Source of the DNA: Candidatus Woesearchaeota archaeon
GTDB taxonomy: Archaea > Nanobdellota > Nanobdellia > SCGC-AAA011-G17 > PNOQ01
Direction: 5' to 3'
DNA: 57,675 nt
NCBI GenBank assembly: GCA_964474895.1
Contig: CAYYUK010000003.1
Coordinates: forward strand, 1-57,675
The notes beneath the pieces were generated by a model. That model had not been told where the DNA came from. It ran no database searches and was given only the letters and a program-made list of their open reading frames with translations. Positions within the stretch are counted from its first letter, which is position 1, and the number at the start of each line of letters is the position of its first letter. The position numbers and the translations under genes are program-made. This document shows, piece by piece, positions 28,506-55,009 of this stretch.

Positions 28506-28560
28506 ATATTGAAAATTAATTACAACAACATTTATAACCTTAACCAAAGTCTAGAAAAAG

Positions 28561-31116
28561 ATGGAAGACGAGTTAAAAATTGATTTCAATTTAGAAAACA
28601 TAAAGAAAAGCTTAGAGAAACCTAAAAAATTCATAATCAAACACAAAATAGTTCTATTAATATTGATTCCAATAATCTTGGCAGTTTTCTTTAGGGCATA
28701 TACATACGATCTACCATTTGCAAACAACATGGCAGAAGACTCACTAGAAAATAATATTATATCACAAATTCAAAATCAAATAATAGCTGAAAATCCGAAT
28801 ATCGATGAAAATACACTTAATATTTTAACACAACAAAGATATAATGAATATGTAGCCTCGAATAGAGAACTAATAGAACAACAAGTAGAACAGATTACAA
28901 ATCAAATTAAAAGTTACTATCAAGACGAATCAGGACAAACATACCTTCTAGCAATAGATCCTTATCACTACTATAGGCAAGCACAAAATGTTTTAGACAA
29001 TGGACACGTGGGGGATGAATTAGTAGATGGAAAACCATTTGACAATCATATGTTGGCTCCAAATGGAAAAGAAACATCAAACGACTTCCACTCAGTCATT
29101 GGAGCATATGCACATAAAATAAGTTCATTATTTGGAAATGATTCATTAATGAAAACTATGTTCATTCTACCACTAATCTTTGCAGCATTATCAACAATTC
29201 CTCTTTTCTTTATTACAAGAAAGATAGGTGGAAACCTTGGTGGGACAATAGCTGCATCAATTCTTGCAATACATTCTGCATTTCTTTCAAGAACCCCTGC
29301 AGGGTTTTCAGATACTGACGCATACAGCATATTTTTTCCATTAGTAATAATCTGGCTGTTCTTAGAATCATTCACAACAACAAACAAAAAAAATAAAATG
29401 ATCTCAGGAGTTTTAGCTGGACTATTTTCAGGCATCTTTGCATTTGCATGGGGTGGTTGGTGGTACGTCTTAGACTTTATTCTAGCAAGCATGGGAATTT
29501 ACTTCATATATTTGCTAATAAAACATAAAAAAGAAGTATTCAAAAAAATAAAAACAAAAAATCTTGTAAAAACAATGGTGTATTTCATAGGTTCATCTGC
29601 CCTCTTTGTAACTTTATTCACAAGTTTTGGTACTTTCTTAGGTGCATTTAAATCTCCAATAGATATTGTATTTCTTAAAGAAGCTGCAAAATCAACACTT
29701 TGGCCAAACGTATACACAACAGTAGCAGAACTAAACGCAATATCAATACCTGGAGTGATATCAAATCTTGGGGGAAAATTATTTTTTGCAATAGCAACAA
29801 TAGGAATACTACTAATTTTACTAAAAAAGAATAAAAAACAATTAGATATAAAATATGGTATACTAATGGTAGTATGGTTCATAGGGACACTTTACACAAC
29901 AACAAAAGGAATACGATTCATAATGTTCATGGTACCTGTATTTGCAGCAGGTATTGGTATTTTTTCAGCAAAAGCTTACAATTTCATAACAAACTGGTCA
30001 GAAAAGGAATTAAAAATAAAAAAGAAGTTGGTTTCAGCATTACTCATAATCATAATTATTTTGAGCTTTATACCATTAATAAAATCTGCAAACATTTCTT
30101 CAAAACAACAAGCACCATCAATGAACGACGCATGGTATGGTGCACTCACAAAAATAAAAGAAGAAACTCCAGAAAACACAATTATAACTTCATGGTGGGA
30201 TTTCGGTCACTGGTTCAAAGCAATTGCAGATAGGGCAGTAACCTTTGATGGAGCATCACAAAATAGACCCCCTGCACATTGGGTAGGAAAGATTCTTCTA
30301 ACAAATGACGAAAATGAAGCAATTGGATTATTGAGAATGTTAGATTGTGGCGGAAATGACGCATACAATCTACTCCTGGAAGAAATAGAAGATCCATTAA
30401 CAACCAAAAGCACAATAGATGAAATAGTATTACTAGATGAAAACTCAGCAAGAACTATCTTAAATCAGCATTTAGAAGATCCAGAGAAAATATTAGAAAA
30501 AACACATTGTTCGGCACCGCCTGCAGTATTTATTACTTCAGAAGACATGGTTGCCAAATCTGGAGTTTGGGCACATTTTGGCTCTTGGGATTTTGAAAGA
30601 TCATTTATGTACAATACGATAAGAAACAACAATAAAGAAAACTCAATAAACATTATATCGGATAGATTAGGATACTCTGAGGAAGAATCATCTTTATTCT
30701 TTAATGAATTAAATGGTTTACCTGACACTGAAGCAAACAATTGGATTGCGCCATACCCAAGCTATTCGCACGAAGGATCTTGTCAAATAAGAAATAACAC
30801 AGCAACATGCAGTAATGGAGCAATAATAGATTTAACCAATAACGTAGCTGCAATACAAACCGAAAACGGGTTAATGCAAGTTCAAAAATACAGAGATGAT
30901 AAGAGAGTCTATACTTCAACAGAAGGAACAAACAACATAGCAATAGCATACTTCCCAGAAGAATCAAAATCAAGACTTATGAGTGAAGAATTAATAGAAA
31001 GCACTTTCACAGAACTATATTTCTATAAGGGGGAAAATTTAGATCATTTTGAATTATTTGATCACCAAATTGGTGTTGATGGATTTGATATATACACATG
31101 GACTATAAAATGGTAG
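28561..31116 (+). CDS. aglB: Oligosaccharyltransferase AglB (STT3 family)
   Basis: AIDPYHYYRQ, RTPAGFSDTD, YTTVAEL, WWDFGH, DGASQ, EDMVAK (DxxK); many TMs followed by a soluble C-terminal domain. Confidence 0.96.
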   Translation: MEDELKIDFNLENIKKSLEKPKKFIIKHKIVLLILIPIILAVFFRAYTYDLPFANNMAEDSLENNIISQIQNQIIAENPNIDENTLNILTQQRYNEYVASNRELIEQQVEQITNQIKSYYQDESGQTYLLAIDPYHYYRQAQNVLDNGHVGDELVDGKPFDNHMLAPNGKETSNDFHSVIGAYAHKISSLFGNDSLMKTMFILPLIFAALSTIPLFFITRKIGGNLGGTIAASILAIHSAFLSRTPAGFSDTDAYSIFFPLVIIWLFLESFTTTNKKNKMISGVLAGLFSGIFAFAWGGWWYVLDFILASMGIYFIYLLIKHKKEVFKKIKTKNLVKTMVYFIGSSALFVTLFTSFGTFLGAFKSPIDIVFLKEAAKSTLWPNVYTTVAELNAISIPGVISNLGGKLFFAIATIGILLILLKKNKKQLDIKYGILMVVWFIGTLYTTTKGIRFIMFMVPVFAAGIGIFSAKAYNFITNWSEKELKIKKKLVSALLIIIIILSFIPLIKSANISSKQQAPSMNDAWYGALTKIKEETPENTIITSWWDFGHWFKAIADRAVTFDGASQNRPPAHWVGKILLTNDENEAIGLLRMLDCGGNDAYNLLLEEIEDPLTTKSTIDEIVLLDENSARTILNQHLEDPEKILEKTHCSAPPAVFITSEDMVAKSGVWAHFGSWDFERSFMYNTIRNNNKENSINIISDRLGYSEEESSLFFNELNGLPDTEANNWIAPYPSYSHEGSCQIRNNTATCSNGAIIDLTNNVAAIQTENGLMQVQKYRDDKRVYTSTEGTNNIAIAYFPEESKSRLMSEELIESTFTELYFYKGENLDHFELFDHQIGVDGFDIYTWTIKW

Positions 31117-32033
31117 ACCTTTCAATAGTATTACCAATTTACAATGAAGAAAGAAATATAGAAATACTTTACAAAGAAATAAAGAAAGTTCTAAATCACT
31201 TACCCAAAACTCATGAAATAATTTTTGTAAACGATGGTTCAACAGATAGAAGTTCGGTTATAATAAGCTCAATAAAAGAAATAGACAACAAAGTAAAAAC
31301 AATAACATTTAGAAAAAACTTTGGACAAACAGCAGCACTAGATGCAGGAATAAAGGCTTCATCTGGAAAAGTTATAATCACAATGGACAGTGATTTACAA
31401 AATGATCCAAGAGATATACCAAGACTATTAAAAAAACTAGAAGAAGGATATGATATTGTTGCTGGCCAAAGAATTAACAGAAAAGACACAGTTTCAAAAA
31501 AGTTCATATCTTTAGGTGCAAGAGCACTAAGAAGAATAATATTAAAAGATAGGCTTCACGATTCAGGATGCACATTAAGAGCATACAAAAAAGAATCAGT
31601 AAATGGATTAAATCTTTATGGTGAAATGCATAGGTTCATACATATTATACTAAAATCAAAAGGATTCAAAATAGGTGAAATAAAAGTAAGGCACAGAAAG
31701 AGAATTCATGGAAAGACAAAATATACATTTTCGAGAACGCTAAAAAGTCTATTTGACATGGCATTATTAAAATTTTGGATGCAATACTCAAGAAGGCCAA
31801 TGCATATTTTTGGTAGTGTTGGTTTTTTCACAAGCACAATTGGATTTATTTTTGGTTTATACTTAACATATCTAAAATTATTCTTAGGAGAACCAATAGC
31901 AAATAGACCTCTTCTCCTACTTTCTATACTGCTAATACTTCTAGGAACATTTTTCTTTATGTTTGGTATCTTAGCAGACATTTTAATAAAAATATATTAC
32001 AAGGATGAAGAAAGTTATTCAATAAAAAAATGA
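31098..32033 (+). CDS. GT2 polyprenol-phosphate glycosyltransferase (GtrB/ArnC-like, 2 C-terminal TMs)
   Basis: SIVLPIYNEE, VNDGSTD, RKNFGQTAALDAG, TMDSDLQNDP, YGEMHRFI. Confidence 0.92.
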   Translation: MDYKMVDLSIVLPIYNEERNIEILYKEIKKVLNHLPKTHEIIFVNDGSTDRSSVIISSIKEIDNKVKTITFRKNFGQTAALDAGIKASSGKVIITMDSDLQNDPRDIPRLLKKLEEGYDIVAGQRINRKDTVSKKFISLGARALRRIILKDRLHDSGCTLRAYKKESVNGLNLYGEMHRFIHIILKSKGFKIGEIKVRHRKRIHGKTKYTFSRTLKSLFDMALLKFWMQYSRRPMHIFGSVGFFTSTIGFIFGLYLTYLKLFLGEPIANRPLLLLSILLILLGTFFFMFGILADILIKIYYKDEESYSIKK

Positions 32034-33151
32034 GAATACTAATGTTAAATTTCGAATTTCCGCCTTTAGGTGGTGGTGCTGCCCCTTTATGTTTTGATAC
32101 TGCAAGAAGGATAATCCAAGAAGGACACAAAATAGATTTAGTAACAATGGGTTACAAGGGACTAAAAGCATACGAAAATATAGAAGGCATAAATGTTTAT
32201 AGAGTTCCTTGTATAAGAAAAAATAAAGAATATAGTACAACTTTTGAATTATTCACTTATCTACCAACTGCATTTATGAAAGCATTAAAATTAACAAAAA
32301 AAAATAAATATGACATTAACCATACACACTTTATTATTCCAACAGGATTTATCTCCTATCTATTAAAAAAAATAAGAAATCTAGATTATGTTATTACCTC
32401 ACATGGATCAGACGTCCCAAACTATAATCCAGATAGATTCAAACTAGGACATAAATTACTACCCCCTATATGGAAATTGATAATAAAAAATGCAAAAAGG
32501 ATTATAACTCCTTCAGAACATTTAAAAAATCTAATTTTAAAAACATATACCACAGATAAAATAGATGTAATCTTCAATGGAATAGATATAGAAGAAAAAG
32601 TAGAAAAAGAAAAAGAAGACACAATCTTATTTGCAGGAAGGTTACTAGAAAGAAAAGGAGTTCAATATATAATAGAAGCAATAAAAGATCTAAATTTAGA
32701 GGGATATAAGGTAATCATTGTTGGGGATGGCCCATATAGGGAAGAATTAGAGAAAAAAGCAGAAGAAATAAAAGATAAAATTCAATTTATAGGCTGGATT
32801 GATCAAAAAAAATTAAAGGAATTATACGCTATTTCGAAGATTTTCATACTACCTTCCACTCAAGAAAGTTTTGGTATGGTAATTGCAGAAGCAATGGAAA
32901 AAAATATGGCTGTAATTTGTGGAGAAGGAAGTGCTTGTTCTGAAGTCCTAGGTAAAACGGGGATAACACTTAACCCAAGAAGCAGTAAGCAAATAAAAAG
33001 AGCAATAGAATATTTCATAAAAAATCCAAGTAAGATAGAAGAAGCAGGAAAATTAGGAAGAAAACGGGCAAAAAGATTATTTGATGTCAAAAATATATCA
33101 CAAAACTACATAGAACTATACAACGATGTGATTAAAACAAAAACTATTTAA
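32030..33151 (+). CDS. GT4 family glycosyltransferase
   Basis: EFPPLGGG, ILFAGRLLERKG, LPSTQESFGMVIAEAM. Confidence 0.92.
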   Translation: MRILMLNFEFPPLGGGAAPLCFDTARRIIQEGHKIDLVTMGYKGLKAYENIEGINVYRVPCIRKNKEYSTTFELFTYLPTAFMKALKLTKKNKYDINHTHFIIPTGFISYLLKKIRNLDYVITSHGSDVPNYNPDRFKLGHKLLPPIWKLIIKNAKRIITPSEHLKNLILKTYTTDKIDVIFNGIDIEEKVEKEKEDTILFAGRLLERKGVQYIIEAIKDLNLEGYKVIIVGDGPYREELEKKAEEIKDKIQFIGWIDQKKLKELYAISKIFILPSTQESFGMVIAEAMEKNMAVICGEGSACSEVLGKTGITLNPRSSKQIKRAIEYFIKNPSKIEEAGKLGRKRAKRLFDVKNISQNYIELYNDVIKTKTI

Positions 33152-34082
33152 TAAAATAACTAGCAATCCCCCAAAATAAGAAATATATTACAACCAAGCC
33201 ATGAACTATAAATCCAGAGGATATGGCCATAATTTTATCAACACCAATTGCAAGAAATACCACTGTCCAAAAAGTTTCTTGAGTTCCAAAATTTAAGATG
33301 CCATGAATCGGCAAACTACTAAAAATCAAAATAAGAGACATTGCAAAAATAAAATAAGAATAAGAAATTTCAAGACCAAGTCCATTCAATATGTAATAAG
33401 TAAATACAAAAGAAGAAATCCAAACCAAAAGAGATAGCAGAAAAACAAAAAATAAATTCCTTTTCTGAGAAGAAAAAGAATCAGAAACTTTCTCTAAATA
33501 AGACAAACCCTTACAAAAGAATTTGTATTTGTTAAGCTTAAAAAATAAAATCAAATTGATAATTCCTCCAAAAAATTTGGCTGGTTTAAACAAGAAAACA
33601 ACAAACAAAGAAAAGATAAAAAATGAAAGCAGGAACAACCAAAAGAAATTACCTACCAATAAAAAATAAGCACTTTTCGCAAAGAGCAAAGAAAATATCA
33701 ATAGAAAAAAGATAGACAAAAAATCGAAAATTCTTAAAAAAATAAGAGAAGAAATAGATTTGGAACTATCAACCCCCTTTTTCTTTAACAAATAAACCAA
33801 AGAAAGCTCACCAGATCTAAATGGAAGAACTTGACTAAAGAGATTATGCAAACTTATAACTCTAAATAGCTCCTTAAATTTAAATTTCTTTTCAAGGACA
33901 TATCCAAGTCTAAACGACCGAAAAACATAAATCAAAGTATAAAGCAAAAAACCAATAAAAACAACATAATAAGATAAATTAGAAAAAACACTTTTAAATT
34001 CTGAAAAATCAATATTACTTAACAAAACAGTAACTAACAAAACAGTTAATATCCCTGAAATCAAAAGTTTTCCTTTCTTCAT
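33144..34082 (-). CDS. LPG-synthase TM / AglD2 (UPF0104) flippase-like membrane protein
   Basis: FRSFRL, LPFRSGELS, RIFD, LPIHGILNFGTQE; about 8 TMs. Confidence 0.8.
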   Translation of the reverse strand: MKKGKLLISGILTVLLVTVLLSNIDFSEFKSVFSNLSYYVVFIGFLLYTLIYVFRSFRLGYVLEKKFKFKELFRVISLHNLFSQVLPFRSGELSLVYLLKKKGVDSSKSISSLIFLRIFDFLSIFFLLIFSLLFAKSAYFLLVGNFFWLFLLSFFIFSLFVVFLFKPAKFFGGIINLILFFKLNKYKFFCKGLSYLEKVSDSFSSQKRNLFFVFLLSLLVWISSFVFTYYILNGLGLEISYSYFIFAMSLILIFSSLPIHGILNFGTQETFWTVVFLAIGVDKIMAISSGFIVHGLVVIYFLFWGIASYFIK

Positions 34083-35740
34083 TCTAAATTAACATAATAC
34101 AATTCATGCATACGTCCATCGCTAAACTCATACTCTTTAATTTCAAATTCACCAGCATCTAATCTGGCGGAAACAAGCAAATTAATAGAAGAAAAATCAA
34201 AGGTCCCACCTTTTCTAAACAATAGATAAACAGGACTAAACTGATCACCTTGCATATTAAACCCAATTTGGGCTAATTTATAATTCTGAGAGATGTATTC
34301 CACTCTATCATCTTGAAAGATACCAAAATCCCATGCATAGACAAAAATCCAACTAGCATTAAGATTATCTTCTGCAAATTGAATATCCTCCACAGTTGAA
34401 GGAATCCCTCTTGTTCCCTTTATATCACCATGCCATAACAAACCATAAGCTTGGTGGCTACTATGCATCACTCTCTCTCCCTCTAATTTATGTTCCTTTA
34501 TGTACTCTCCAGCAACATCCAAACCTTCAAACTGAGTATCAAACATTCTATCTTTAGCTGCAAAAGAAGGTAAGATAAGCAAAGAAAAAATTATAAAGAC
34601 AAAAATCCACTTTAACTTTTTAAATTTGATAACTTTAGCCAAGGTCATAGAAGCAGACAAGATAAAAAACGAAACAAAAAACACAAATAAAGGTAACAAA
34701 GGATATTGATGATAATTATGACCTTGCATTTTTTGAGCCATAAATACAAACCAGATTACAGAACCAATAAGATAAGAATTAATAAATTTACATTCAAAAG
34801 ATTTCATATTAACCTTAACAATAAAAAACCAAAAGAGAATTCCAAAAACAAAAAAGGTTAACCCCAATAAAGTATAATTATCTCTTGCAAAAGAAAGCAT
34901 TATCCTCCAAAAATCAGAGTTAAACAACACACCAAACTCAACAACCTCAAATTGAGATCCAATACTTTTAGAAATTGAAGAGCTATACTTAAACCATAAA
35001 AAAGAGAGCAATCCAATAAAAACAAAAAATAAATGTTTACTCAAATACTTTTTATCTCTCAATATTTTATAGGGATAAGTAAGTATTACTGGAACTGCAA
35101 ATAGTATAAAACTATACTTAGTCATTATACCAAGCATCAAAAAAATACTAAACAATACAGTATTCTTCCAACTTCTCTCCTTAAACCATTTTATATAATA
35201 ATAAATACCGGCAAGTGAAAAAAACAGGGCAGGACCTAAAAGCTGAACTTGCCTACCAAAGAAAATAGCAAGCGGATTTAAAGCAAATACCAATGCGGAA
35301 ATAAAAGCAAGATCTTCCCTCTTGAATAGAAGTTTAACAATCAAATAAAACAAAATAATAGACCCTATAGAAAACAATATGCTAACTAGCCGCGCCCCTG
35401 ACAAACTAACCCCTAAGAGATTAAACAAAAACCCTACAATTATTGATGTGGTCGGAAAACTATCCGTATGTGCCCCGCTAGGATTCTCATTTATTGAAGG
35501 ATAATCCCACTCTGGAACAAAAAAACCATGTTCAAAAAAACCATTATCAGCAAAATTTCTGGCCTCTGTCAAATAATGAGTTTCCTTCCAATTGTGATAT
35601 CCTGTAACTGGATAATCAATATGATAAGCCCTAAAATAAAAAGCAAAAATCAAAACAATCAAAAACAATATCACCTTCCAATGTTTAGAAACAAACGAAA
35701 GAAATTCCCTACTACCAAAATCTCCTGATTTTTCAGACAT
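34079..35740 (-). CDS. GT-C glycosyltransferase (ArnT/PMT-like, GT39/GT83)
   Basis: TM1 then HNWKETHY, FPTTSII, ARLVSILFS, GIMTKYS, HNYHQYPLLP; about 11 TMs and a C-terminal soluble domain. Confidence 0.82.
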   Translation of the reverse strand: MSEKSGDFGSREFLSFVSKHWKVILFLIVLIFAFYFRAYHIDYPVTGYHNWKETHYLTEARNFADNGFFEHGFFVPEWDYPSINENPSGAHTDSFPTTSIIVGFLFNLLGVSLSGARLVSILFSIGSIILFYLIVKLLFKREDLAFISALVFALNPLAIFFGRQVQLLGPALFFSLAGIYYYIKWFKERSWKNTVLFSIFLMLGIMTKYSFILFAVPVILTYPYKILRDKKYLSKHLFFVFIGLLSFLWFKYSSSISKSIGSQFEVVEFGVLFNSDFWRIMLSFARDNYTLLGLTFFVFGILFWFFIVKVNMKSFECKFINSYLIGSVIWFVFMAQKMQGHNYHQYPLLPLFVFFVSFFILSASMTLAKVIKFKKLKWIFVFIIFSLLILPSFAAKDRMFDTQFEGLDVAGEYIKEHKLEGERVMHSSHQAYGLLWHGDIKGTRGIPSTVEDIQFAEDNLNASWIFVYAWDFGIFQDDRVEYISQNYKLAQIGFNMQGDQFSPVYLLFRKGGTFDFSSINLLVSARLDAGEFEIKEYEFSDGRMHELYYVNLE

Positions 35741-35823
35741 AAAAAGAACAAAGAAATAGATTATATAAGTGTTATCAAAAATCCTTCATAAACTATTTAA
35801 AACGAATTTCTTTCCCAGAAATA

Positions 35824-36504
35824 ATGAATATCTCCATAATTGTTCCTGCTTTCAATGAAGAAAAAAACATAGGCAAAGCAATAGACAATCTAAGAAAAGA
35901 AGGATACAACAACATAATTGTAGTGGATGACGGCTCTAAAGACAAAACTTTTGAAATAGCAAAGGAAATGCAAGTACATGCCCTAAGACACATAATAAAT
36001 AGGGGACAGGGGGCTGCACTTCAAACAGGAATGAGCTATGCACTCCTAAACGGAGCAGAAATATTAGTTCATTTCGATTCAGACTGCCAGCATAAGGCAG
36101 AAGAAATACAAAAAATGATTCTTCCAATAATACGCAACGAAGCAGAAGCAACACTAGGTTCAAGATTCTTAAATAAACAAAGAATACCATTTAAAAGAAA
36201 AATTATGCTCAAGGGTGCAATTCTAATAATTAGAATGTTCTATGGAATAAAACTCTCTGATGCCCATAACGGTTTCAGAGCATTTTCAAGAGATGCAGCA
36301 GAGAAAATAAGAATAACAATGGATAAAATGGAACATGCTTCAGAAATAGTTGAAGAAATAAAAAGAAAAAAAATTAAGTATAAAGAAATCCCTGTAACAA
36401 TAGTTTATACAGCAGAATCGCTAAAGCAAGGAAGAAAGGGACAGGGTAAATTAGATTCATTAAAAATTGTATCAAAAATGTTCATGAAAAAATTGGGAGT
36501 TTAA
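35824..36504 (+). CDS. GT2 DPM1-like polyprenol-phosphate sugar synthase
   Basis: IIVPAFNEE, VVDDGSKD, INRGQGAALQTG, HFDSDCQH, DAHNGFRAF. Confidence 0.92.
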   Translation: MNISIIVPAFNEEKNIGKAIDNLRKEGYNNIIVVDDGSKDKTFEIAKEMQVHALRHIINRGQGAALQTGMSYALLNGAEILVHFDSDCQHKAEEIQKMILPIIRNEAEATLGSRFLNKQRIPFKRKIMLKGAILIIRMFYGIKLSDAHNGFRAFSRDAAEKIRITMDKMEHASEIVEEIKRKKIKYKEIPVTIVYTAESLKQGRKGQGKLDSLKIVSKMFMKKLGV

Positions 36505-36505
36505 A

Positions 36506-36829
36506 ATGTTAACAATAATACAAATAATATTCGTAATCTTTAGTTTATTTGCATTCAGCAGAGTGTTCATAAACATAAGAGACAAAAATTTAAGGGAAAA
36601 AGAAGCATTCTTCTGGTTAATTTTCTGGGGAATTGCAATAATAGTTTTACTATATCCAGGAGTTTCAACAACCATTTCAGAATTTCTTGGCATAGAGCGT
36701 GGTGTAGACTTAATAACTTATTCAGGACTAATACTCTTAGCATATATGATATTTAGATTATATGCAAAGCAAACAAGGATTGAAAGAAACATAACAAAGA
36801 TAGTTAGGACAATAGCAATCAAAAAATGA
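36506..36829 (+). CDS. DUF2304 family protein (GacJ/Rv3632-like GT2 activator)
   Basis: 107 aa, 3 TMs, FFWLIFW..YP, LGIERGVDL, C-terminal ITKIVRTIAI; immediately after a GT2 gene. Confidence 0.88.
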   Translation: MLTIIQIIFVIFSLFAFSRVFINIRDKNLREKEAFFWLIFWGIAIIVLLYPGVSTTISEFLGIERGVDLITYSGLILLAYMIFRLYAKQTRIERNITKIVRTIAIKK

Positions 36830-41127: not shown

Positions 41128-41177
41128 ATAGGGAAAAAATTAAAAATCTTTTTAAGTATTATGAAACACCAAAAAAC

Positions 41178-45753: not shown

Positions 45754-45805
45754 TAAAAAAATCAGCTACACAACCTATTTAAATTTAGCTTAATTGAGAT
45801 TCATA

Positions 45806-47038: not shown

Positions 47039-47047
47039 GCGATTTCC

Positions 47048-48235
47048 ATGAAACATATAGTATTCTTAACAAGATATCACCCAACACCAGGGGGGAGAAC
47101 TGGATTCACAAAAGATATAATAAAAAATCTTGGTGATGACTATAATTTTAGTGTAATTTGCTTTAGAAGAAAAGATTTAATCTCAGAAAAAATCTCTTTT
47201 GATCCATCAAAAGAAGCTTCAATTAAAACATTAGAAATAAAAAAGAAATTCAAAAGTGATACTTTGAATCTAATCAGTTACCACATAAAATCCTACAAGA
47301 TTCTAAAAAAATTAAAAGATAAAAAAGAACTGGATATTATTATTGGAACGGGACTATCTGGACTTGGAGGGATAATCTTTGGGAAACTAAACAAAATACC
47401 AGCTATATTCAATACTTCTGGAATAAGAGGAAGAAACATAAATGAACACATAGACTATGAAATAAAAAATAAAGAAGAAAAAGAAATAGGAAAGCCAAAA
47501 CTAAAAAATTATCCAAGATTCCTATACAATTATCTAACAGATAGATTAAGTATCTTATTATCAACAAAAACAACAATTCCAACAGGTCATTTAGAAGAAC
47601 AACTAGAAAAGAACAAACCAAAATTATACAAAAAAACAAAAAGTAAGTTTAAAGTAATAATAGAAGGTCTAAACACAAATAGGGTAGACAATCTAAAGAA
47701 AGAAGACATATTAAAGGAATACAACATCCCAGAGGGCAAAATAATATTATTCTCTAGAATAGAAAACGAAGAATTCTTCCAAGAACTATTTAAAGAAATT
47801 AAAAAAGAAATCCCCGATTCTACAGTAATAAGCATAGATGCACAAAGAATGACTATGCGGCTAGAAAAAGAAGGAAAATTAGAACTTACGGATATGGGCC
47901 CAATAAAAGCAATGATAGCTAGCGATCTAATGCTTTGCATCCCTGGTACTGAACCACATAGTACCCTAGTTTTAGAATCCCTTTACACGAATTGCCCAAC
48001 ATTTGTATCTAATGTAGGATGGTTAAAATATGAATTTAAAGATTACCCTGAGTTTATAGTTAAAAATCTTACAAAACAAGAAACAATTTTCAAAATCAAA
48101 GATTTCTATAAAAACAGAGAATCATATTCTGAAAAATTTTCAAAAATAAAGCAAGAAATATTGGACAGAAATAGCTTCGAAAGAACAAAAAAAGACTACA
48201 AAGACTTATTCGACAACATATCTTCCATAAGATAG
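47048..48235 (+). CDS. Divergent GT-B (GT4-like) protein immediately upstream of pepM
   Basis: N-terminal YHPTPGG; C-terminal SDLMLCIPGTEPHSTLVLESL resembles the E-x7-E motif, but the rest is degenerate. Confidence 0.65.
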   Translation: MKHIVFLTRYHPTPGGRTGFTKDIIKNLGDDYNFSVICFRRKDLISEKISFDPSKEASIKTLEIKKKFKSDTLNLISYHIKSYKILKKLKDKKELDIIIGTGLSGLGGIIFGKLNKIPAIFNTSGIRGRNINEHIDYEIKNKEEKEIGKPKLKNYPRFLYNYLTDRLSILLSTKTTIPTGHLEEQLEKNKPKLYKKTKSKFKVIIEGLNTNRVDNLKKEDILKEYNIPEGKIILFSRIENEEFFQELFKEIKKEIPDSTVISIDAQRMTMRLEKEGKLELTDMGPIKAMIASDLMLCIPGTEPHSTLVLESLYTNCPTFVSNVGWLKYEFKDYPEFIVKNLTKQETIFKIKDFYKNRESYSEKFSKIKQEILDRNSFERTKKDYKDLFDNISSIR

Positions 48236-48292
48236 CTTCGCAAAATATTTAAACCATCACAGTAGACATAATTTACTAAAAAGGTGACAAGG

Positions 48293-49657
48293 ATGGAAAC
48301 TGAAACTAATTCTAATAAAAAAGTTGTATATGTCGCAATGGCATCAGACTTGTTACATCATGGCCATATGAAAATAATTGAAGAAGCAAGAAAACTTGGA
48401 GATATAACTCTTGGGTTATTAACTGATAAAGCAATCGCAGGATATAAGAGAGTTCCATTGTTAAATTTTGAACAAAGAAAAAAAATAGTGGAAAATTTAA
48501 AAGGAGTATCTCAAGTTATACCTCAAGAAACCCTTGATTATATTCCGAATCTATTAAAATTAAAACCAGATTTCGTTGTACATGGAACTGATTGGAAAAC
48601 TGGAGTACAAAAACAAACTAGAGAAAAAGTTATAGAAGCACTAAAACAATGGGGGGGAACTCTAATTGAACCAGAAGTTATTCCTGTTTCTAATAGTACA
48701 CTTATAGAAACTGGTGGAGATGGAAAAATGTCTTCAACTCATTTAATAGATTCTGTTTTAGAAGCAGGCGCCGCTCCAGAAGTAAGAAGAAAAAAACTAA
48801 AAAGAGCTATAGAACTAAGACCAATTGTTAGAATATTAGAAGCACATAATGGGCTAACCGGAAGGATAGTTGAAAAAACAAAAATAGCGAAAGATGGAGC
48901 AATAAAAGAATTCGATGGTATTTGGATTAGTAGTCTAACAGATTCTACAGCAAAAGGCAAACCAGATACTGCTGCAGTAGATGTAACTTCTAGAGTAAAT
49001 ACAATTGAACAAATATTAGAAGTAACATCAAAATCAATAATAGTAGACGGAGATAACGGGGGAATAGTAGAACATTTTAGGTTTACAGTAAAAACTTTGG
49101 AAAGATTGGGTGTTTCTGCAATAATAATTGAAGACAAAATAGGACCAAAGAGAAATTCATTATTTGGAACTGAAGTAGAACAAAAACAAGATAGTATAGA
49201 AGAATTTAGTCATAAAATTTCTGAAGGAAAAAAAGCACAATTAACAGATGATTTCATGATAATCGCTAGGATAGAAAGCCTGATTGCCGGGGCTGGATTA
49301 GATGACGCCCTAAAAAGAGCAAGTGCATACATTGAATCTGGAGCAGACGCTATAATGATCCATAGTAAGTCCAAAACACCAGATGAAATATTAGAATTTT
49401 GTAAAGAATACAACAAATTTGAAAACAGAATTCCACTAGTAGTGGTCCCTTCATCATATAGCCATATAACTGAAGACGAATTAATAAATAATGGAGTAAA
49501 TATCGTAATATATGCAAATCACTTACTAAGAAGCGCACATCCATCAATGGTAAAAACAGCAGAATCAATTCTAAAACATAGCAGGTGTCACGAAGCAAGT
49601 TTAGAACATTGCATGCCGATTAAAGATATCTTAAACCTGATCCCCGGAAGTAAATAA
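48293..49657 (+). CDS. pepM: Cytidylyltransferase - phosphoenolpyruvate mutase fusion
   Basis: N-domain DLLHHGH (HxGH), VVHGTDW, SST. PepM domain EAHNGL, WISSL, KPD, DGDNG, the signature [10 protein letters not shown] (EDKxxxxxNS), ARIES, IYANH. ATG 48293 lies behind GGTGA. Confidence 0.96.
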
Positions 49658-49715
49658 ATAATAATTTCTAAAAATTCATAAGTCTTATAAAATAATCAAG
49701 CCTCTCGAAAAGATA

Positions 49716-50849
49716 ATGTTATCCTGTAAAAGTTTCGAACAAATTCTGAGTAAAGAGGGAATATCTTTCTTCACAGGAGTTCCAGATTCACTATTAAAAG
49801 ATTTCTGTGCATATGCTACTGACAATATTCCCCCTGAAAGAAATATCACAGTACATAATGAGGGTGGAGCAATTGCATTAGCAGCAGGACATTACCTAGC
49901 AACACAAAAGCCAGGGTTAGTATATATGCAAAACTCTGGACAAGGAAACGCAATAAATCCATTAGCCTCTTTGGTAGATCCTGATGTTTATAGCATACCA
50001 TTACTCCTTCTGATTGGATGGAGGGGGGAACCTGGAAAAAGGGACGAACCACAACATGTAAAGCAAGGAAAAATAACCCTTGGTTTACTAGAAACTCTGG
50101 GGATTCCTCACAAAATTCTGCCAGATTCAATAGAAGAAGCAGAAAAAATAGTAAAAATAGCTGCTGAATCAATGAGAGACCGGAATGCGCCTTATGCACT
50201 TGTAGTAAAAAAAGGAACTTTTGAATCTTATGAGCTACAAAATAAAGCAAAAACTAATTTTGAATTAAATAGGGAACAAGCCTTAGAGCTGATAGTAGAT
50301 AATTTAGATTCACAAGACATTGTAATTTCAACTACAGGAAAAACATCTAGAGAATTATTTGAGTATAGAGAAAAGTTAAATCAATCACATGAAAAAGATT
50401 TTCTTACAGTTGGATCAATGGGTCATTCATCCCAAATAGCCTTGGGAATTGCATTATCAAAACCAAAAAGAAACGTTTATTGTTTTGATGGAGATGGAGC
50501 TACAATCATGCACATGGGATCCTTAGCAATAATTGGGCAACAAGCTCCAAAAAACTTCAAACACATTATATTTAATAACGGTGCACACGATTCAGTAGGG
50601 GGTCAACCAACAGCAGGATTTAACATCGACATTCCAATCATAGCAAAAGCAAATGGATACGAAAAAACCTTTAGAGCAGAAACTAAAGAAGAAATAATAG
50701 AAAGTATGCAACAACTAAAATCGGCAGAAGGCCCAGCACTCCTAGAAATAAGAGTTAACAAAGGAGCAAGAAAAGAATTAGGAAGACCAACAACAACGCC
50801 GATAGGAAATAAAGAAATGTTCATGGAATTCTTAACCGAAAAACAATGA
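49716..50849 (+). CDS. aepY: Phosphonopyruvate decarboxylase
   Basis: GVPDSLLK, NEGGAIALAAG, YMQNSGQGN, GWRGEPG..DEPQH, VGSMGH, DGDGA, NNGAHDSVGGQ. Confidence 0.95.
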   Translation: MLSCKSFEQILSKEGISFFTGVPDSLLKDFCAYATDNIPPERNITVHNEGGAIALAAGHYLATQKPGLVYMQNSGQGNAINPLASLVDPDVYSIPLLLLIGWRGEPGKRDEPQHVKQGKITLGLLETLGIPHKILPDSIEEAEKIVKIAAESMRDRNAPYALVVKKGTFESYELQNKAKTNFELNREQALELIVDNLDSQDIVISTTGKTSRELFEYREKLNQSHEKDFLTVGSMGHSSQIALGIALSKPKRNVYCFDGDGATIMHMGSLAIIGQQAPKNFKHIIFNNGAHDSVGGQPTAGFNIDIPIIAKANGYEKTFRAETKEEIIESMQQLKSAEGPALLEIRVNKGARKELGRPTTTPIGNKEMFMEFLTEKQ

Positions 50850-51985
50850 GTCAAAAAGAATATTTTGGATCTGGAGCAATAGAAAACCTAAAAGAACAAT
50901 TATCATCTCTTAAACCAAACAAAGTACTTCTAATAACGGGGAATAATTCTTATCAATCTTCTGGAGCAAGAGAAGCAATAGAACCTTTATTATCGGGAAC
51001 ACATTATGAAAGATTCTACGAATTCAAAACAAATCCAAATGTAGAAGATATCAAAAAAGGAATAAAAATTTTCAAAGCTAATCAATGTGATCTAACAATT
51101 GCTATTGGTGGTGGTAGTTGTATAGACATGGCTAAAGCAATAAATGCACTAGCAAATCAAGAAGGCAACTTAGAAGATTACATAACAGGAAAAAGAAGTT
51201 TAGAAACTTCACCAGGAACATTAATAGCAATACCTACAACTGCAGGAACTGGATCAGAATCAACTCATTTCGCAGTTGTTTATATTGGAAAAACAAAATA
51301 TTCTTTAGCACATCAAAAGATGTTACCAACAGTTGCAATCTTAGACCCAAACCTAACAATAAACTTACCACAAAGCATAACTGCAGCAACAGGAATGGAT
51401 GCATTAGGACAAGCAATAGAAGCACACTGGTCAACAAACTCAACTGAAGAATCTAGAAAATATTCTATGGAATCCATAAAGCTAGGAATCCAAAATCTAG
51501 AACAATGCGTAAATAATCCAAATGAACAACTAAGAGAAAATATGCTAAGAGCTTCAAACTTAGCAGGAAGAGCAATAAATATAGCGAAGACGACCGCAGC
51601 ACATGCAGTGTCATATCCGATAACTTCGCACTTTGGGGCCCCCCATGGACACGCAGTAGGGTTAACATTGCCAAGTTTCATATTATACAACTCACAATTA
51701 GAAGAAGGAACAAAACTAAACGACACAAGAGGAAGAAACTTTGTAAAAGAAAGAACAGAAGAAATAGTTCAGGCATTGGGCTGTGAAACTCCTGAACAAG
51801 CAAAAGAGCTTTTAACAAAATTAATGGGAAAAATAGGTCTAGAAACAAGATTAAGTAAATTAGGAGTAACTGAAGAAGGAATCCAATTAATAATAAAGAA
51901 TGGATTCAATCCTCAGAGAGTAAAAAACAATCCAAAAGATTTAAGCGAAGAAGATTTAAGACTAATTCTAACAGACATATTCTAA
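50846..51985 (+). CDS. Fe-containing alcohol dehydrogenase, phosphonoacetaldehyde reductase (PhpC/FomC-like)
   Basis: GGGSCIDMAK, PTTAGTGSE, GMDALGQAIE, TTAAHAVSY, PHGHAV; ATGA-coupled to aepY. Confidence 0.88.
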   Translation: MSQKEYFGSGAIENLKEQLSSLKPNKVLLITGNNSYQSSGAREAIEPLLSGTHYERFYEFKTNPNVEDIKKGIKIFKANQCDLTIAIGGGSCIDMAKAINALANQEGNLEDYITGKRSLETSPGTLIAIPTTAGTGSESTHFAVVYIGKTKYSLAHQKMLPTVAILDPNLTINLPQSITAATGMDALGQAIEAHWSTNSTEESRKYSMESIKLGIQNLEQCVNNPNEQLRENMLRASNLAGRAINIAKTTAAHAVSYPITSHFGAPHGHAVGLTLPSFILYNSQLEEGTKLNDTRGRNFVKERTEEIVQALGCETPEQAKELLTKLMGKIGLETRLSKLGVTEEGIQLIIKNGFNPQRVKNNPKDLSEEDLRLILTDIF

Positions 51986-51987
51986 CC

Positions 51988-52003
51988 AGAAAGATTTAAA
52001 AAA
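51988..52003 (+). promoter_or_regulatory. Representative archaeal BRE-TATA promoter (AGAAAGATTTAAAAA) of a probably leaderless gene
   Basis: AAAG(A/T)TTTAAA-type elements recur about 25-35 nt before starts, e.g. before 52026, 52776, tRNA-Leu 16482 and 9404 (minus strand). Confidence 0.6.
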
Positions 52004-52025
52004 TACACATAACTTCAATACCTGT

Positions 52026-52631
52026 ATGAAAATAGACAAAGGAGACCTCCAGTTCAGAAATATTGTACATTCTCTTATTAAAAAAGAAAAAATGGGCAAA
52101 CTATTAGACATCGGACCTGGAAGAGGCCAAATAACAAAGATGTATTATGAGTTAGGTTTTCAAACATCTTGTGTAGATATAGATCCTTCTGTTTTAGAAT
52201 TTGATAAAATTACTTGCAAAAAAGTAGACATGAACTTCGAAAAGCTCCCATTCAAAAATGAAAGTTTTGATTATGTAATGTGTACAGAAATTTTAGAACA
52301 TTTAGAAAATCCACATAACTTAATAAGAGAATCAAGCAGGGTGCTAAAAAAAGGAGGAAAGCTAATAACTTCCACACCCTACACAGGATCTTTAGTTCAA
52401 AGAATTTACTATCTTTTAACAGGATTCTTCCTAAGATTCAACAAAGAACCAAAAGAAGACGGACACATAACCCCAATAAACTTGCATCTTCTAAAACATT
52501 TGTTTAAAAAGAACAATCTCAAAATAGAGAAAATTACATACAACAGGGGGTGGCTTCCATTGCTAAGAATCGAATTACCAAGAAATAAATTATGGGGAGA
52601 CGTAATAATAATTAAAACACAAAAATATTAA
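52026..52631 (+). CDS. Class I SAM-dependent methyltransferase
   Basis: LLDIGPGRG, LPFKNESFDYV..EILEHLENP, LKKGGKLI. Confidence 0.9.
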   Translation: MKIDKGDLQFRNIVHSLIKKEKMGKLLDIGPGRGQITKMYYELGFQTSCVDIDPSVLEFDKITCKKVDMNFEKLPFKNESFDYVMCTEILEHLENPHNLIRESSRVLKKGGKLITSTPYTGSLVQRIYYLLTGFFLRFNKEPKEDGHITPINLHLLKHLFKKNNLKIEKITYNRGWLPLLRIELPRNKLWGDVIIIKTQKY

Positions 52632-52775
52632 AACTAACAAAAATAGTTTCAACAAAAAAAATCAAATAAAAGTTTATTAAAACAAATAAATCGAGAACTA
52701 CAAAATTTCTTTAATTCTAAAAAACCTACAGGTCAAATAAGAAAGATTTAAAAGAAGAATTAGTTTTCCACTTTT

Positions 52776-53498
52776 ATGAAAAACAAAGAAATTCTACAAG
52801 AGGAAGAATACTTAATTCCATATCATCACACAGTAAAGGAAGGAGAATACGCTGGAATATCTTATTTTAGTGTAATAAGCATAATAAAAAAAATAATAAA
52901 AAAAATATCCCCAAAAACAATTCTAGACTTCGGCTGTGGGGATGGAAAACTAATCTATGAACTAAAAAATCAAGATACTGAACTAACTGGAATTGATTTA
53001 TCAAAAAAAGCAATATCCTTTGCAAAAATATTCTCCCCAAAAGAGAAATTTATAGCAGAAGACATAAACAATTACAAACCTAAAGAGAAATTTAACATGA
53101 TCATATCAATAGAAACATTAGAACACATTCCTCCAGATCAGCTAAAAAACATAATAAAAAACCTAAACAGATTAGTAAAAGAAAACGGCTACCTAATCAT
53201 AACAGTTCCATCAAAGAATGTTAGACTATTTAAAAAACATTATCAACATTTCGATACAAAAACAATGCAAAACTATCTAGAAGGACAATTTAAAATAGTA
53301 AAAACATTAGGGCATTACAAAATATCAAAAAGGTATGAACTACTATACGCACTTGCAACAAACAATTATCTATCAATTTCATCCAAAAAATATCAAAAGT
53401 TTCTAAATAAATACTTCAAAAAAAATATAGAAAGAGCATCAACAAATAACTGTAGAAGACTAATCTTCATATGCAAAAAACTAAGCAACTCTTTTTAA
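52776..53498 (+). CDS. Class I SAM-dependent methyltransferase
   Basis: ILDFGCGDG, GIDLS, IETLEHIP, GYLIITVP. Confidence 0.9.
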   Translation: MKNKEILQEEEYLIPYHHTVKEGEYAGISYFSVISIIKKIIKKISPKTILDFGCGDGKLIYELKNQDTELTGIDLSKKAISFAKIFSPKEKFIAEDINNYKPKEKFNMIISIETLEHIPPDQLKNIIKNLNRLVKENGYLIITVPSKNVRLFKKHYQHFDTKTMQNYLEGQFKIVKTLGHYKISKRYELLYALATNNYLSISSKKYQKFLNKYFKKNIERASTNNCRRLIFICKKLSNSF

Positions 53499-54962
53499 TA
53501 AATCTCTAACTTCTTCAAAACTAATAAGCCTAAACAAAAACAAACCAACAAAATAAAAAATAAGTCCAATTAATCCAATAACAACAAACTCAATCCAAGG
53601 ATTAATTATTGGCATCTTTCTAAGGGCACCGCATAAAATCAAAAATAAAAATCCCAAAACAAAAAGTTTGACAAATAAAATAGCAGGAAAATTATACTTG
53701 ATAATTTTCTTAAGATAATAAAAAGAAACAAAAAACATAAGCAACGAGGCAAAAAACAAAGACAATCCAGCCCCAAGTATTCCATAAAAAGGAATTAAAA
53801 TTAAATTTAAAATTAAAGCAAAAATAGAGCCCCCTGCCATGATCTTTGCATTTATCTTAGATTTACCAATGCCTAAAAGTATATTCGCATTTACATAAGC
53901 AACACAATAAAAAACAGCGGAAAATGAAAGAATCCTCAAAGTAGAAGTAGCCCCAATATAATTTTCACCAAAAAACAACAAAATAATCAATGGAGCAAAG
54001 AAAACCATGCCCAATGAAAGAGGAAAAACAACAATCAATAAATATTTCTGAACACGTTTTATCCCATCAATCAATACCTCTTTTTTCTGAAGATAAATTT
54101 CTGAAGACAAAGGAATTAAAACAAGAGAAACAGATTTAGCAAATTGCCTTAACATCATTGCAATTGGTAGTGCAACGTTATACAAAGCAACTTCTTTCAA
54201 CCCAATAAAAAAAGTAATCAACAATGTATCGATGTATCCTACACTTGAAGCCACAACTGCACTAATTGTTAAAGGAAACCCAAAAAGAGTAAGCTTCTTA
54301 AAAAGTTTAAAATCAACAGAAGATTTAGCCTTGACTGTCTTAGGAGAAAGCTTAGAAAACAAAAGAAAGTAAACAATTCCAGAGAGTATAGAAGCAAAAA
54401 GATATGCATAGGCTGGAGAAAGATAACCAAATCCAAGATAAAAAAGGATGATAGTTATCAAAACAACTAAAGACATTTGGAAAAAATGCGTAAACGCATA
54501 GTAATTCATCTTTTTATAACCTAAAAACAATACATGAAAAAGAGATTCAAAAATAGCAAAGAGAAAAGCTAACCCTAAAACAACCAAAAGCTGAACAGCT
54601 TTAATATCTTTAAAATAATAAAGAGCAAACCTTTCAGCAAGAAGAAATATACCAACTAAGAGAAGTCCATAAGTAATAAGTTGAACAAAAAAGTAATAAA
54701 TAATACCCTTCTTTATAGAAGAAAAATCTTTCTTTATCTTAAACTCTGGAATATACTTCATCAAAGCTTGTCCAATACCAAATCCCCTAAAAGAAGCAAG
54801 CAATCCAACAAGTGCAAATACTGCATAAAACAAACCATAATCTTCAATAGAAAGGTTTCTAGCCAAAACTACTCTTAATACATATCCTAGAAGAGCGGCT
54901 AAAATTGAAGCAAATAACAGCCACCCAGTACCCCTTACAAGAATCTTAGTATAATTAGGCAT
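53481..54962 (-). CDS. MOP/Wzx-type oligosaccharide flippase (AglR-like)
   Basis: About 14 TMs, LARNL..EDYG, DTLLI....G..EVALY..A, LIPFYGILGA. Start set at ATG 54962. Confidence 0.9.
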   Translation of the reverse strand: MPNYTKILVRGTGWLLFASILAALLGYVLRVVLARNLSIEDYGLFYAVFALVGLLASFRGFGIGQALMKYIPEFKIKKDFSSIKKGIIYYFFVQLITYGLLLVGIFLLAERFALYYFKDIKAVQLLVVLGLAFLFAIFESLFHVLFLGYKKMNYYAFTHFFQMSLVVLITIILFYLGFGYLSPAYAYLFASILSGIVYFLLFSKLSPKTVKAKSSVDFKLFKKLTLFGFPLTISAVVASSVGYIDTLLITFFIGLKEVALYNVALPIAMMLRQFAKSVSLVLIPLSSEIYLQKKEVLIDGIKRVQKYLLIVVFPLSLGMVFFAPLIILLFFGENYIGATSTLRILSFSAVFYCVAYVNANILLGIGKSKINAKIMAGGSIFALILNLILIPFYGILGAGLSLFFASLLMFFVSFYYLKKIIKYNFPAILFVKLFVLGFLFLILCGALRKMPIINPWIEFVVIGLIGLIFYFVGLFLFRLISFEEVRDLLKRVA

Positions 54963-55009
54963 AAGGATCACATAACACCACAAATATTTTAAGTCTTACG
55001 AAAGAGAAA

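Follow-up and report, generated by a model that had tools for sequence, protein, structure and literature searches.

The DNA considered here is a stretch of 57,675 nt from Candidatus Woesearchaeota archaeon (GCA_964474895.1, contig CAYYUK010000003.1, positions 1-57,675, forward strand), referred to below as the window. Gene content was established from a listing of open reading frames (ORFs) together with Pfam and NCBIfam profile scans. A glycan island occupies 28561-54983, running from aglB, which encodes an oligosaccharyltransferase, to a gene for a Wzx-type flippase, and it contains three genes for phosphonate biosynthesis. The original prediction had described an uninterrupted block from aglB to wzx and had proposed that it makes N-glycans capped with a C-P bonded group. 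The block itself is confirmed, since intergenic gaps do not exceed 145 bp and the profile scans recovered each of the gene classes at the position given for it; the gene-caller start of Wzx (54962) is the end coordinate used in that prediction, and the ORF itself spans 53481-54983. The features on which the argument depends are as follows.

28561-31116, + strand: AglB/STT3 oligosaccharyltransferase, 851 aa (PF02516 over aa 108-507, 175.4 bits, cut-off 24.5)
48284-49657, + strand: Fom1-type 2-hydroxyethylphosphonate (HEP) cytidylyltransferase (CTase; aa ~11-141; PF01467, 47.7 bits) fused to phosphoenolpyruvate (PEP) mutase (PepM; aa ~170-457; PF13714)
49716-50849, + strand: phosphonopyruvate decarboxylase (Ppd/AepY/Fom2; TIGR03297 equivalog, 502 bits, cut-off 312.5)
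50846-51985, + strand: group-III Fe-alcohol dehydrogenase (Fe-ADH; PF00465, 160 bits, and PF25137)
53481-54983, - strand: Wzx/MOP-family flippase, AglR-like role (PF01943, 119 bits; PF13440; NF007773, MOP flippase family)
2-6760, - strand: giant surface protein, cut off by the start of the window at no fewer than 2253 aa; N-terminal hydrophobic anchor; candidate substrate of AglB

Predicted product of the phosphonate module

The fusion protein comprises 457 aa in its GTG-start form and 454 aa from the ATG start chosen by the gene caller. Its PepM domain scores 395 bits on the TIGR02320 equivalog (cut-off 319.55), also matches the PepM structures PDB 5unc and 1m1b, and carries at aa 283 the catalytic motif EDKxxxxxNS, which separates PepM from the isocitrate lyase superfamily's other members (PMC6697681). 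The N-terminal domain has an HHGH (HxGH) motif at aa 25 and is 58% identical over 131 aa (E=8.3e-49) to the CyTase domain of Fom1 (PDB 5x3d), so that the plain CTase label first given to it can be sharpened to Fom1-type HEP cytidylyltransferase; homologues of the fusion are labelled 'PEP phosphomutase / 2-hydroxyethylphosphonate cytidylyltransferase' by JGI. Fom1, the characterized enzyme that makes CMP-HEP, is the biochemical exemplar of PF01467-PepM fusions, and PF01467 is present in 23.6% of the Ppm enzymes in a RefSeq inventory (PMC6697681). Among 81 loci with the PepM fusion, Ppd was detected in 71 and an Fe-ADH in 64, and on the strength of this recurrence the Fe-ADH is taken to be a putative phosphonoacetaldehyde reductase (the PhpC/FomC role). 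The earlier assignment of the three enzymes to an HEP route thus holds, resting on the EDKxxxxxNS motif, the TIGR02320 and TIGR03297 cut-offs and the Fe-ADH count.

The scans also bear on what becomes of HEP. With Pfam, no transaminase for 2-aminoethylphosphonate (AEP) was found in the window and no aminotransferase of any kind in the block, and no block ORF matched Radical_SAM, B12-binding or cupin domains (Fom3, Fom4/HppE). MpnS/HEPD/HppE cupin-type oxygenases are likewise absent, all ORFs of at least 100 aa in 28.5-55.9 kb falling in other families or folds. Because a Fom1-type CTase is present and AEP transaminase, MpnS/HEPD and radical-SAM genes are not, the product is predicted to be CMP-HEP, and we consider it very probable that the module makes this compound as the activated donor.

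A module of this type could alternatively make a diffusible small-molecule phosphonate, either free HEP or a fosfomycin-like compound, beside glycan genes that are unrelated to it. Fom1/Fom2/FomC-type enzymes do catalyze the first steps of fosfomycin biosynthesis (PMC6697681), and B12-radical-SAM (Fom3-like) genes adjoin the fusion in L001, L003, L008, L020 and L052 (L-numbers denote loci from surveys of genome and metagenome contigs, each read ±10 kb around the query gene). The window itself, though, contains no radical-SAM, HppE-like, FomD-like, resistance or exporter gene, and the phosphonate module keeps its place between glycosyltransferases and wzx in six lineages, which makes a diffusible product extremely improbable.

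Destination of the phosphonate

AglB has about ten hydrophobic segments and, judged by alignment, retains its catalytic motifs. WWDFG at aa 545-549 aligns to WWDYG of C. lari PglB and A. fulgidus AglB-L, D133 ('IDPYHYYR') aligns to D47 of the A. fulgidus enzyme, D251/D253 ('SDTDAY') align to its D161/H163 ('NDHHIW') and to the DTD of PglB ('YDTDML'), and TVAE, ending at E389, aligns to the TIxE element of PglB ('TIME'). We take these acidic residues to be metal-binding or catalytic and the TVAE sequence to be a TIxE-type EL5 motif. A regular-expression search downstream of WWDFG gave no clean DxxK or MxxI pattern (DK/MI motif). A plausible substrate is encoded at the start of the window: the giant protein at 2-6760 contains 107 N-X-S/T sequons, compared with 51.2 ± 6.3 in 300 shuffles (z ~9), and eight non-surface proteins (aminoacyl-tRNA synthetases, ATPases, TldD, SecD, PepM and Ppd) have between zero and two each. 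The protein probably belongs to the cell surface or mediates adhesion and probably bears many N-glycans, and this excess of sequons leads us to expect heavy N-glycosylation in the organism.

The association of aglB with pepM is conserved in close relatives. In three diverged relatives with AglB proteins 57-63% identical to that of the window, namely JGI 3300072015 contig 53878 (AglB 63%, PepM 88%), JGI contig 22358 (AglB 57%) and ENA k141_496019 (239 kb; AglB 62%, PepM 64%), the two genes are 19-22 kb apart in the same gene order, and the arrangement is no chance juxtaposition. Some 16 genes make up the right-hand module, which was met again in four further lineages, one of them marine; its order is GT1d, GT1_2, FemAB, methyltransferase, GT2, deacetylase, GT4, GT4, GT-B, CTase-PepM, Ppd, ADH, methyltransferase, Wzx, SpoIIM (GT, glycosyltransferase); this order is the same even in Tara Oceans contigs with a GT-B protein of only 45% identity, and L001 has a variant of the module.

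The island does not evolve at the pace of its surroundings. Comparison of 16722-36829 with L087 (ENA ERZ27250158 k141_927186), the closest relative by housekeeping identity, gave identities of 95% for the PIN-ATPase, 89% for SecF and 85% each for SecD and Trm56, whereas the surface and glycan genes are at 65% (AglB), 60% (PKD surface protein), 54% (orf358) and 44% (GT-C). Genes after the first GT2 differ in L087, and identity returns to 79-97% at GT2b, DUF2304 and GT4b. Like O-antigen loci, the island evolves fast and as a mosaic, its glycan genes and surface proteins outpacing the flanks, and this fits a cell-surface role under diversifying selection. We read the block as a whole as such a surface-glycan island, anchored by AglB, in a Woesearchaeota-like DPANN archaeon.

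Within the 57-kb window, Pfam detected no Wzy polymerase, chain-length regulator, ligase or polymer export gene. The lack of Wzy, ligase and export genes, the intact AglB motifs and the sequon-rich surface protein make AglB the most economical destination for the phosphonate-bearing glycan. Alternatively, the phosphonate could decorate a separate Wzx-dependent glycoconjugate, such as an exopolysaccharide, a capsule-like layer or a glycolipid, without involvement of AglB, the adjacency of aglB then reflecting the pooling of envelope-glycan genes in a small genome. In keeping with this, the conserved unit extends from GT1d through Wzx and occurs in L001 without aglB in the 10 kb seen upstream, as well as in L124 and L125, on contigs that end before any aglB could show; archaeal loci usually combine pepM with Wzx and show no aglB within 10 kb, a Wzx homologue lying within 10 kb of pepM in ten of 14 archaeal loci. 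The deacetylase and FemAB proteins weakly match, below cut-off, models from XrtA/PEP-CTERM exopolysaccharide loci, and the isolated products of PhpC-type (HEP-route) pathways are limited to the methylphosphonate adduct of Nitrosopumilus and an HEP conjugate purified from Stackebrandtia exopolysaccharide (PMC8942020). Set against these observations are the missing polymerization and export genes and the presence of aglB in the same island wherever contigs reach far enough. In addition, archaeal Wzx-type flippases are known mainly from N-glycosylation (AglR). We regard a separate glycoconjugate as unlikely, though a serious contender.

A third destination would be the membrane, with CMP-HEP building a phosphonolipid head group on archaeal lipids. 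Phosphonolipids or phosphonoglycans are the supposed products of about half of the pepM clusters in microbes (PMC8942020). Counting the 140 ORFs found no more than 7.5 kb from pepM in 14 archaeal loci yielded six CDP-alcohol phosphatidyltransferases, one of them directly after pepM in L037. Other classes counted were sugar-nucleotide epimerases/dehydratases (11 ORFs), Wzx flippases (10), radical-SAM proteins (10, eight with a B12 domain and hence Fom3-like), GT1 (nine), GT2 (seven), sulfatases (six) and methyltransferases (six). In the window, by contrast, neither Pfam nor six-frame tblastn revealed a CDP-alcohol phosphatidyltransferase homologue, and the module sits in conserved order among some nine glycan-building and tailoring genes and Wzx, so that a phosphonolipid is highly improbable here.

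Across DPANN archaea, different lineages probably send the phosphonate to different acceptors: the module appears to serve glycans, probably lipids, and C-methylated derivatives, and the clade of the window is of the glycan/Wzx type. CDP-alcohol phosphatidyltransferase, TagF-like glycerophosphotransferase-family or sulfatase genes were noted in Woesearchaeota/Nanoarchaeota pepM loci at L037 11305-11979, L008 7202-7942, L036 3300-5078 and L026 6834-8228, the TagF-like protein being that of L036, a complete AR20 genome. B12-binding radical-SAM genes lie beside the Fom1-like fusion at L001 4631-6121 and 8651-9958, L003 4429-5868 and 6789-8189, L008 8586-9992, L020 7475-8911 and L052 8542-9984; such Fom3-like neighbours suggest C-methylated phosphonates, for example 2-hydroxypropylphosphonate, in those loci. 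Three Woesearchaeota loci (L002 9887-10432, L008 8044-8589 and L026 9875-10435) have, just upstream of the fusion, a further cytidylyltransferase of 181-186 aa that stands alone and shares 36-43% identity with the fused domain; in L002 and L026 it lies directly upstream.

Several points weigh against AglB as the destination, or against the pathway as a whole. The view of the genome is confined to 57 kb, and another acceptor system could be encoded outside it. Because archaea tend to gather their glycan genes, whatever the kind, in a single island, the nearness of aglB is little evidence that the product is shared. Within 10 kb of pepM, aglB was found in only one of 14 archaeal species-representative loci (L037), or one of 80 when all such loci are taken, although the ±10 kb frame is too narrow for an aglB-pepM spacing of 17-22 kb and makes one in 14 a lower bound; at L037, moreover, the CDP-alcohol phosphatidyltransferase after pepM points to lipid. 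Other DPANN pepM loci contain CDP-alcohol phosphatidyltransferases, sulfatases, a TagF-like protein or Fom3-like radical-SAM genes, and no LicD, TagF-like or CDP-alcohol phosphatidyltransferase protein was matched by Pfam in the window. The PepM fusion is 60-70% identical across Woesearchaeota, Ignavibacteria, Bacteroidota, Saccharibacteria and Neomarinimicrobiota, and 50-56% identical to the SAR11 and Prochlorococcus versions, which fits a widely exchanged module. The Fe-ADH falls below every NCBIfam equivalog cut-off (195.7 against 423.7 for TIGR03405, 'Phn_Fe-ADH') and scores equally on generic ADH models. Finally, cytidylylation is a transient handle in the fosfomycin pathway, so a Fom1-type fusion is in itself no proof of transfer to a polymer.

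Taken with these points, the linkage of pepM to aglB that the original prediction wished to see surveyed across DPANN holds for close relatives (three, in the same order) and is not general (one of 14 archaeal loci, as a lower bound). Its C-P-capped N-glycans are plausible and partly supported: the phosphonate module and the synteny in close relatives stand, and attachment to AglB N-glycans is a proposal, with no LicD, TagF-like or CDP-alcohol phosphatidyltransferase protein in the window. The surface sugars probably carry phosphonate, and its addition to a Wzx-flipped glycoconjugate is likely.

Candidate transferases, glycan genes and flanks

Transfer of HEP from CMP-HEP to a glycan calls for a transferase, and none of a known type was recognized: CDP-OH_P_transf and TagF-like queries from L008, L037, L036 and L018 found nothing in the window by blastp or six-frame tblastn. 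The most closely linked candidate is encoded directly upstream of CTase-PepM.

47048-48235, + strand: divergent GT4-like GT-B protein, 395 aa, no Pfam match

This protein belongs to a very small family (ten homologues found) that adjoins pepM in all contexts examined: L001, L082/L083, L086, L124, L125 and JGI contig 22358. Its AlphaFold (AF2) model has a pLDDT of 81.9, Foldseek gave MshA, BshA, PglA and WaaG as top matches, and E302 and E310, which form an EX7E motif, are invariant among the homologues. A TagF-like CMP-HEP transferase was considered and rejected because the predicted structure and the Foldseek matches show an ordinary GT4-like GT-B fold with EX7E. The protein could be either a glycosyltransferase or, in view of its strict linkage to pepM, a candidate CMP-HEP transferase; further candidates are the two atypical GT-B proteins at 39150-41127. 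The absence of a known transferase type from the window provides a concrete target for enzyme discovery, and the CMP-HEP transferase is the enzyme most worth finding.

The remaining genes of the island are the following (TM, transmembrane; SAM, S-adenosylmethionine).

31098-32033, + strand: GT2 overlapping the aglB stop, one C-terminal TM segment at aa 266-300 (PF00535, 114 bits)
32030-33151, + strand: GT4 (PF00534 and PF13439), with an 83% identical orthologue in L084
33144-34082, - strand: LPG_synthase_TM flippase-like membrane protein with multiple TM segments (PF03706, 116 bits; TIGR00374)
34079-35740, - strand: GT-C, PMT_2/ArnT-like, 553 aa, ~10 TM segments (PF13231 and PF02366)
35824-36504, + strand: short soluble GT2, 226 aa (PF00535, 101 bits)
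36506-36829, + strand: DUF2304 small membrane protein, three TM segments (PF10066, 93.5 bits)
36826-37956, + strand: GT4 (PF00534, 153 bits)
37934-39178, + strand: GT4 (PF00534, 111 bits)
39150-40181, + strand: GT-B, recognized by its C-terminal domain alone, opening the right-hand module (PF00534, 87.6 bits)
40168-41127, - strand: Glyco_trans_1_2/DUF3880 (CgeB-like) GT-B, kept in all relatives (PF13524, 114.5 bits, and PF12996)
41178-42107, + strand: FemAB/GNAT-fold acyl- or aminoacyltransferase (PF02388, 39.9 bits, and PF13480; weak match to TIGR03019, XrtA-associated FemAB)
42100-42849, - strand: class-I SAM methyltransferase MT1 (Methyltransf_31/25/11; gene callers use a 232-aa form)
42770-43858, - strand: GT2 with one TM segment at aa 250-268 (PF00535, 85 bits)
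43851-44693, - strand: polysaccharide-deacetylase-like protein without TM segment (PF01522, 22.9 bits, just below the cut-off of 23.1)
44677-45753, - strand: GT4 (PF00534, 86.5 bits)
45794-47038, + strand: GT4 (PF00534, 144 bits)
52026-52631, + strand: class-I methyltransferase MT2 (Methyltransf_11, 76 bits)
52776-53498, + strand: class-I methyltransferase MT3, directly after the Fe-ADH (Methyltransf_23/31/25)

In total the island encodes 11 GT-A/GT-B glycosyltransferases (ten GT2/GT4/GT1 genes recognized by Pfam and one divergent GT-B without a Pfam match), one GT-C and AglB, near the original figure of about 12; the LPG_synthase_TM flippase-like protein and DUF2304 are additions to the original gene list. 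The GT2 at 31098-32033 lies directly 3' of aglB in L084, L087, L088 and JGI contig 22358 as well, and may be the initiating or dolichyl-phosphate glycosyltransferase, in an AglJ-like role. The GT-C keeps its position in L084, L087 and both JGI contigs. In the relatives' contigs compared, the short GT2 always comes with DUF2304 and points away from the GT-C gene, and it is a candidate polyprenyl-phosphate-sugar synthase feeding the GT-C. A metagenome contig search with the GT4 at 37934-39178 returned only unrelated GT4s, 23-31% identical, and the GT-B at 39150-40181 is syntenic in L086, L124, L125 and the JGI contigs. A single 799-aa fusion replaces the GT4 at 45794-47038 and the divergent GT-B at 47048-48235 in JGI contig 53878, which implies that the two act together.

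Among the tailoring enzymes, the deacetylase call is marginal in the window, orthologues in relatives do match PF01522, and the protein is probably cytoplasmic. MT2 is absent at this position in JGI contig 53878, L001, L086 and L124. MT3 orthologues (236-242 aa, 68-77% identity) hold the same position in four relatives, and the enzyme may act on the phosphonate or on the sugar that bears it; a role as DhpI-like phosphonate O-methyltransferase was not supported, a PDB search giving generic class-I methyltransferases only. No hydrophobic (TM) segments were found in the phosphonate, tailoring and GT-B proteins, and two GT2s have a single C-terminal one. Because CMP-HEP is cytoplasmic and the modifying enzymes lack TM segments, phosphonylation would have to take place on the lipid-linked precursor before flipping by Wzx.

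Two features border the island.

28423-28506, - strand: tRNA-Ser(CGA), the left border of the island (ARAGORN and Rfam)
55010-55861, - strand: SpoIIM-family membrane protein, a conserved wzx neighbour (PF01944)

The SpoIIM gene is next to wzx, or one gene away, in JGI contig 53878, L001, L086 and L124, and a form-III RuBisCO gene adjoins the island in relatives. The flanks encode archaeal aTrm56, SecD/F, a PIN-KH-ATPase, class II aminoacyl-tRNA synthetases and five tRNAs, and GC content in the window is ~31%. All named AglB homologues come from Candidatus Woesearchaeota or Nanoarchaeota, as do the named matches among the closest PepM homologues. The proposal of a DPANN host is thus well founded, and the assignment, drawn from the named AglB and PepM homologues and aTrm56, is considered sound. 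Three side observations concern the flanks: two adjacent, overlapping class II (D/K/N-type) aminoacyl-tRNA synthetases of 448 and 424 aa, each with an OB anticodon-binding domain, at 9593-12210 (+ strand), the first having a JGI cluster mate labelled aspartyl-tRNA synthetase; an ATP-grasp protein between two tRNA genes at 15502-16386 (+ strand), with weak matches to RimK and to a 'sugar-transfer associated ATP-grasp' family; and a 135-aa ORF without Pfam match at 56700-57107 (- strand), which has a hydrophobic segment at its N-terminus and is rich in Gly and Cys in its C-terminal part.

Proposed pathway and related systems

A pathway is proposed in which a Fom1/Fom2/FomC-type module would convert PEP into phosphonopyruvate (PepM), phosphonoacetaldehyde (Ppd) and HEP (Fe-ADH, with phosphonoacetaldehyde as its presumed substrate), and the fused N-terminal cytidylyltransferase would activate HEP to CMP-HEP. 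Facing the cytoplasm, GT2s anchored in the membrane would work with soluble GT4/GT-B enzymes to assemble an oligosaccharide on polyprenyl (dolichyl) phosphate, which would be tailored by deacetylation, FemAB-type acylation and methylation and presumably esterified by the candidate transferase with the HEP-phosphonyl group of CMP-HEP. Wzx would flip the finished lipid-linked glycan outward, and AglB, as the presumed final transferase, would attach it to surface proteins at their N-X-S/T sequons, for example to the giant protein at 2-6760. A second sub-system, made up of the short GT2 with DUF2304, the LPG_synthase_TM protein and the PMT_2 GT-C, would add a sugar on the outside from a polyprenyl-phosphate donor, comparable to AglD/AglR/AglS of Haloferax. 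What the sequences themselves show is the conserved synteny and which genes encode AglB, PepM, Ppd, the Fom1-type CTase and Wzx. That AglB transfers a phosphonate-bearing glycan to protein, that is, the full pathway, we judge evenly balanced. The most specific version, in which a DPANN archaeon places HEP, possibly methylated, on AglB-transferred N-glycans of giant surface proteins by means of a new GT-B-fold CMP-phosphonate:glycan transferase (the 47048-48235 family or the atypical GT-B neighbours), is offered tentatively, as a possibility somewhat short of even.

The Agl cluster of Haloferax volcanii comprises AglB, the GT2s AglJ and AglD, the flippase AglR, the GT-C AglS and the methyltransferase AglP. 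Compared by gene class rather than orthology, the island resembles it in having aglB beside GT2/GT4 genes, SAM methyltransferases and a MOP flippase, and in a pair of dolichyl-phosphate-sugar synthase and GT-C for extracytoplasmic sugar addition; Haloferax differs in having no phosphonate genes there. With aglB accompanied by glycosyltransferases, a MOP/Wzx flippase and tailoring enzymes, in an order kept in three further lineages, the island can be classed as an Agl-type cluster.

Its phosphonate genes resemble the fosfomycin enzymes Fom1/Fom2/FomC of Streptomyces wedmorensis in the PF01467-PEP mutase fusion, the thiamine pyrophosphate (TPP)-dependent decarboxylase, the group-III Fe-ADH and the predicted CMP-HEP; unlike the fosfomycin cluster, the island lacks Fom3 (B12 radical SAM), HppE and FomD and is found in a glycosyltransferase/flippase context in an archaeal host. 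Fusion of PepM to a nucleotidyltransferase is established, as is CMP activation as a route to surface tailoring (Rice et al. 2019, PMC6697681), and the island shares both features with the Pnt pathways (Rice et al. 2019, PMC6697681; Li & Horsman 2022, PMC8942020). It departs from them in that characterized PntC is a PF12804 protein that prefers AEP, whereas the island domain is PF01467 on an HEP route, and in that the usual LicD or CDP-alcohol phosphatidyltransferase is lacking in the window.

Prochlorococcus SB is a close precedent: phosphonate was recovered in its protein fraction, its pepM cluster contains PglC, Wzx and PglL, and O-linked phosphonoglycoproteins have been proposed (Acker et al. 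2022, PMC8931226). Prochlorococcus and SAR11 have homologous CTase-PepM fusions (~56% identity for Prochlorococcus L057, 50-52% for SAR11), with pepM clustered with glycan-assembly genes, Wzx and an oligosaccharyltransferase, but the latter is the bacterial O-linking PglL and the initiator is PglC, whereas the island has archaeal N-linking AglB and contains no PglC/WecA-type initiating enzyme. Phosphonate-bearing polymers include HEP-bearing exopolysaccharide conjugates in actinobacteria and the methylphosphonate adduct of Nitrosopumilus (PMC8942020), and a PepM-CTase fusion lies within the N-glycan region of the Cobalt Borg of Methanoperedens (2025; PMC12660748). Nitrosopumilus maritimus and the Cobalt Borg share with the island archaeal pepM-ppd-ADH modules near glycan genes, and the Borg pairs N-glycan genes with PepM-CTase. 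In N. maritimus, however, MpnS makes methylphosphonate, which is reported to be attached to a polymer resembling exopolysaccharide; the Borg is an extrachromosomal element with in silico annotation only; and neither is a DPANN archaeon or experimentally linked to AglB. Searches of the literature on AglB with phosphonate and on DPANN/Woesearchaeota pepM gave no description of the present arrangement, so the earlier statement that this lineage has no characterized example holds for the searchable literature, with Prochlorococcus (PMC8931226) and the Borg (PMC12660748) as near neighbours. The idea has close precedents, and the system is no new category.

Invertebrates are known to carry AEP on N-glycans (PMC6994554, among other reports). 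If the proposal is correct, the glycan would be the first phosphonate-bearing N-glycan outside eukaryotes, the idea of phosphonoglycoproteins would extend from marine bacteria to archaeal N-glycosylation, and DPANN archaea would count among producers of HEP-type phosphonates. Should the phosphonate end on some other glycoconjugate, the roughly 16 genes of the conserved module still form a well-defined unit that could be reconstructed in a heterologous host. For an episymbiotic archaeon, such a glycan would cap the surface proteins that touch its host and its viruses with a negatively charged group resistant to phosphatases.

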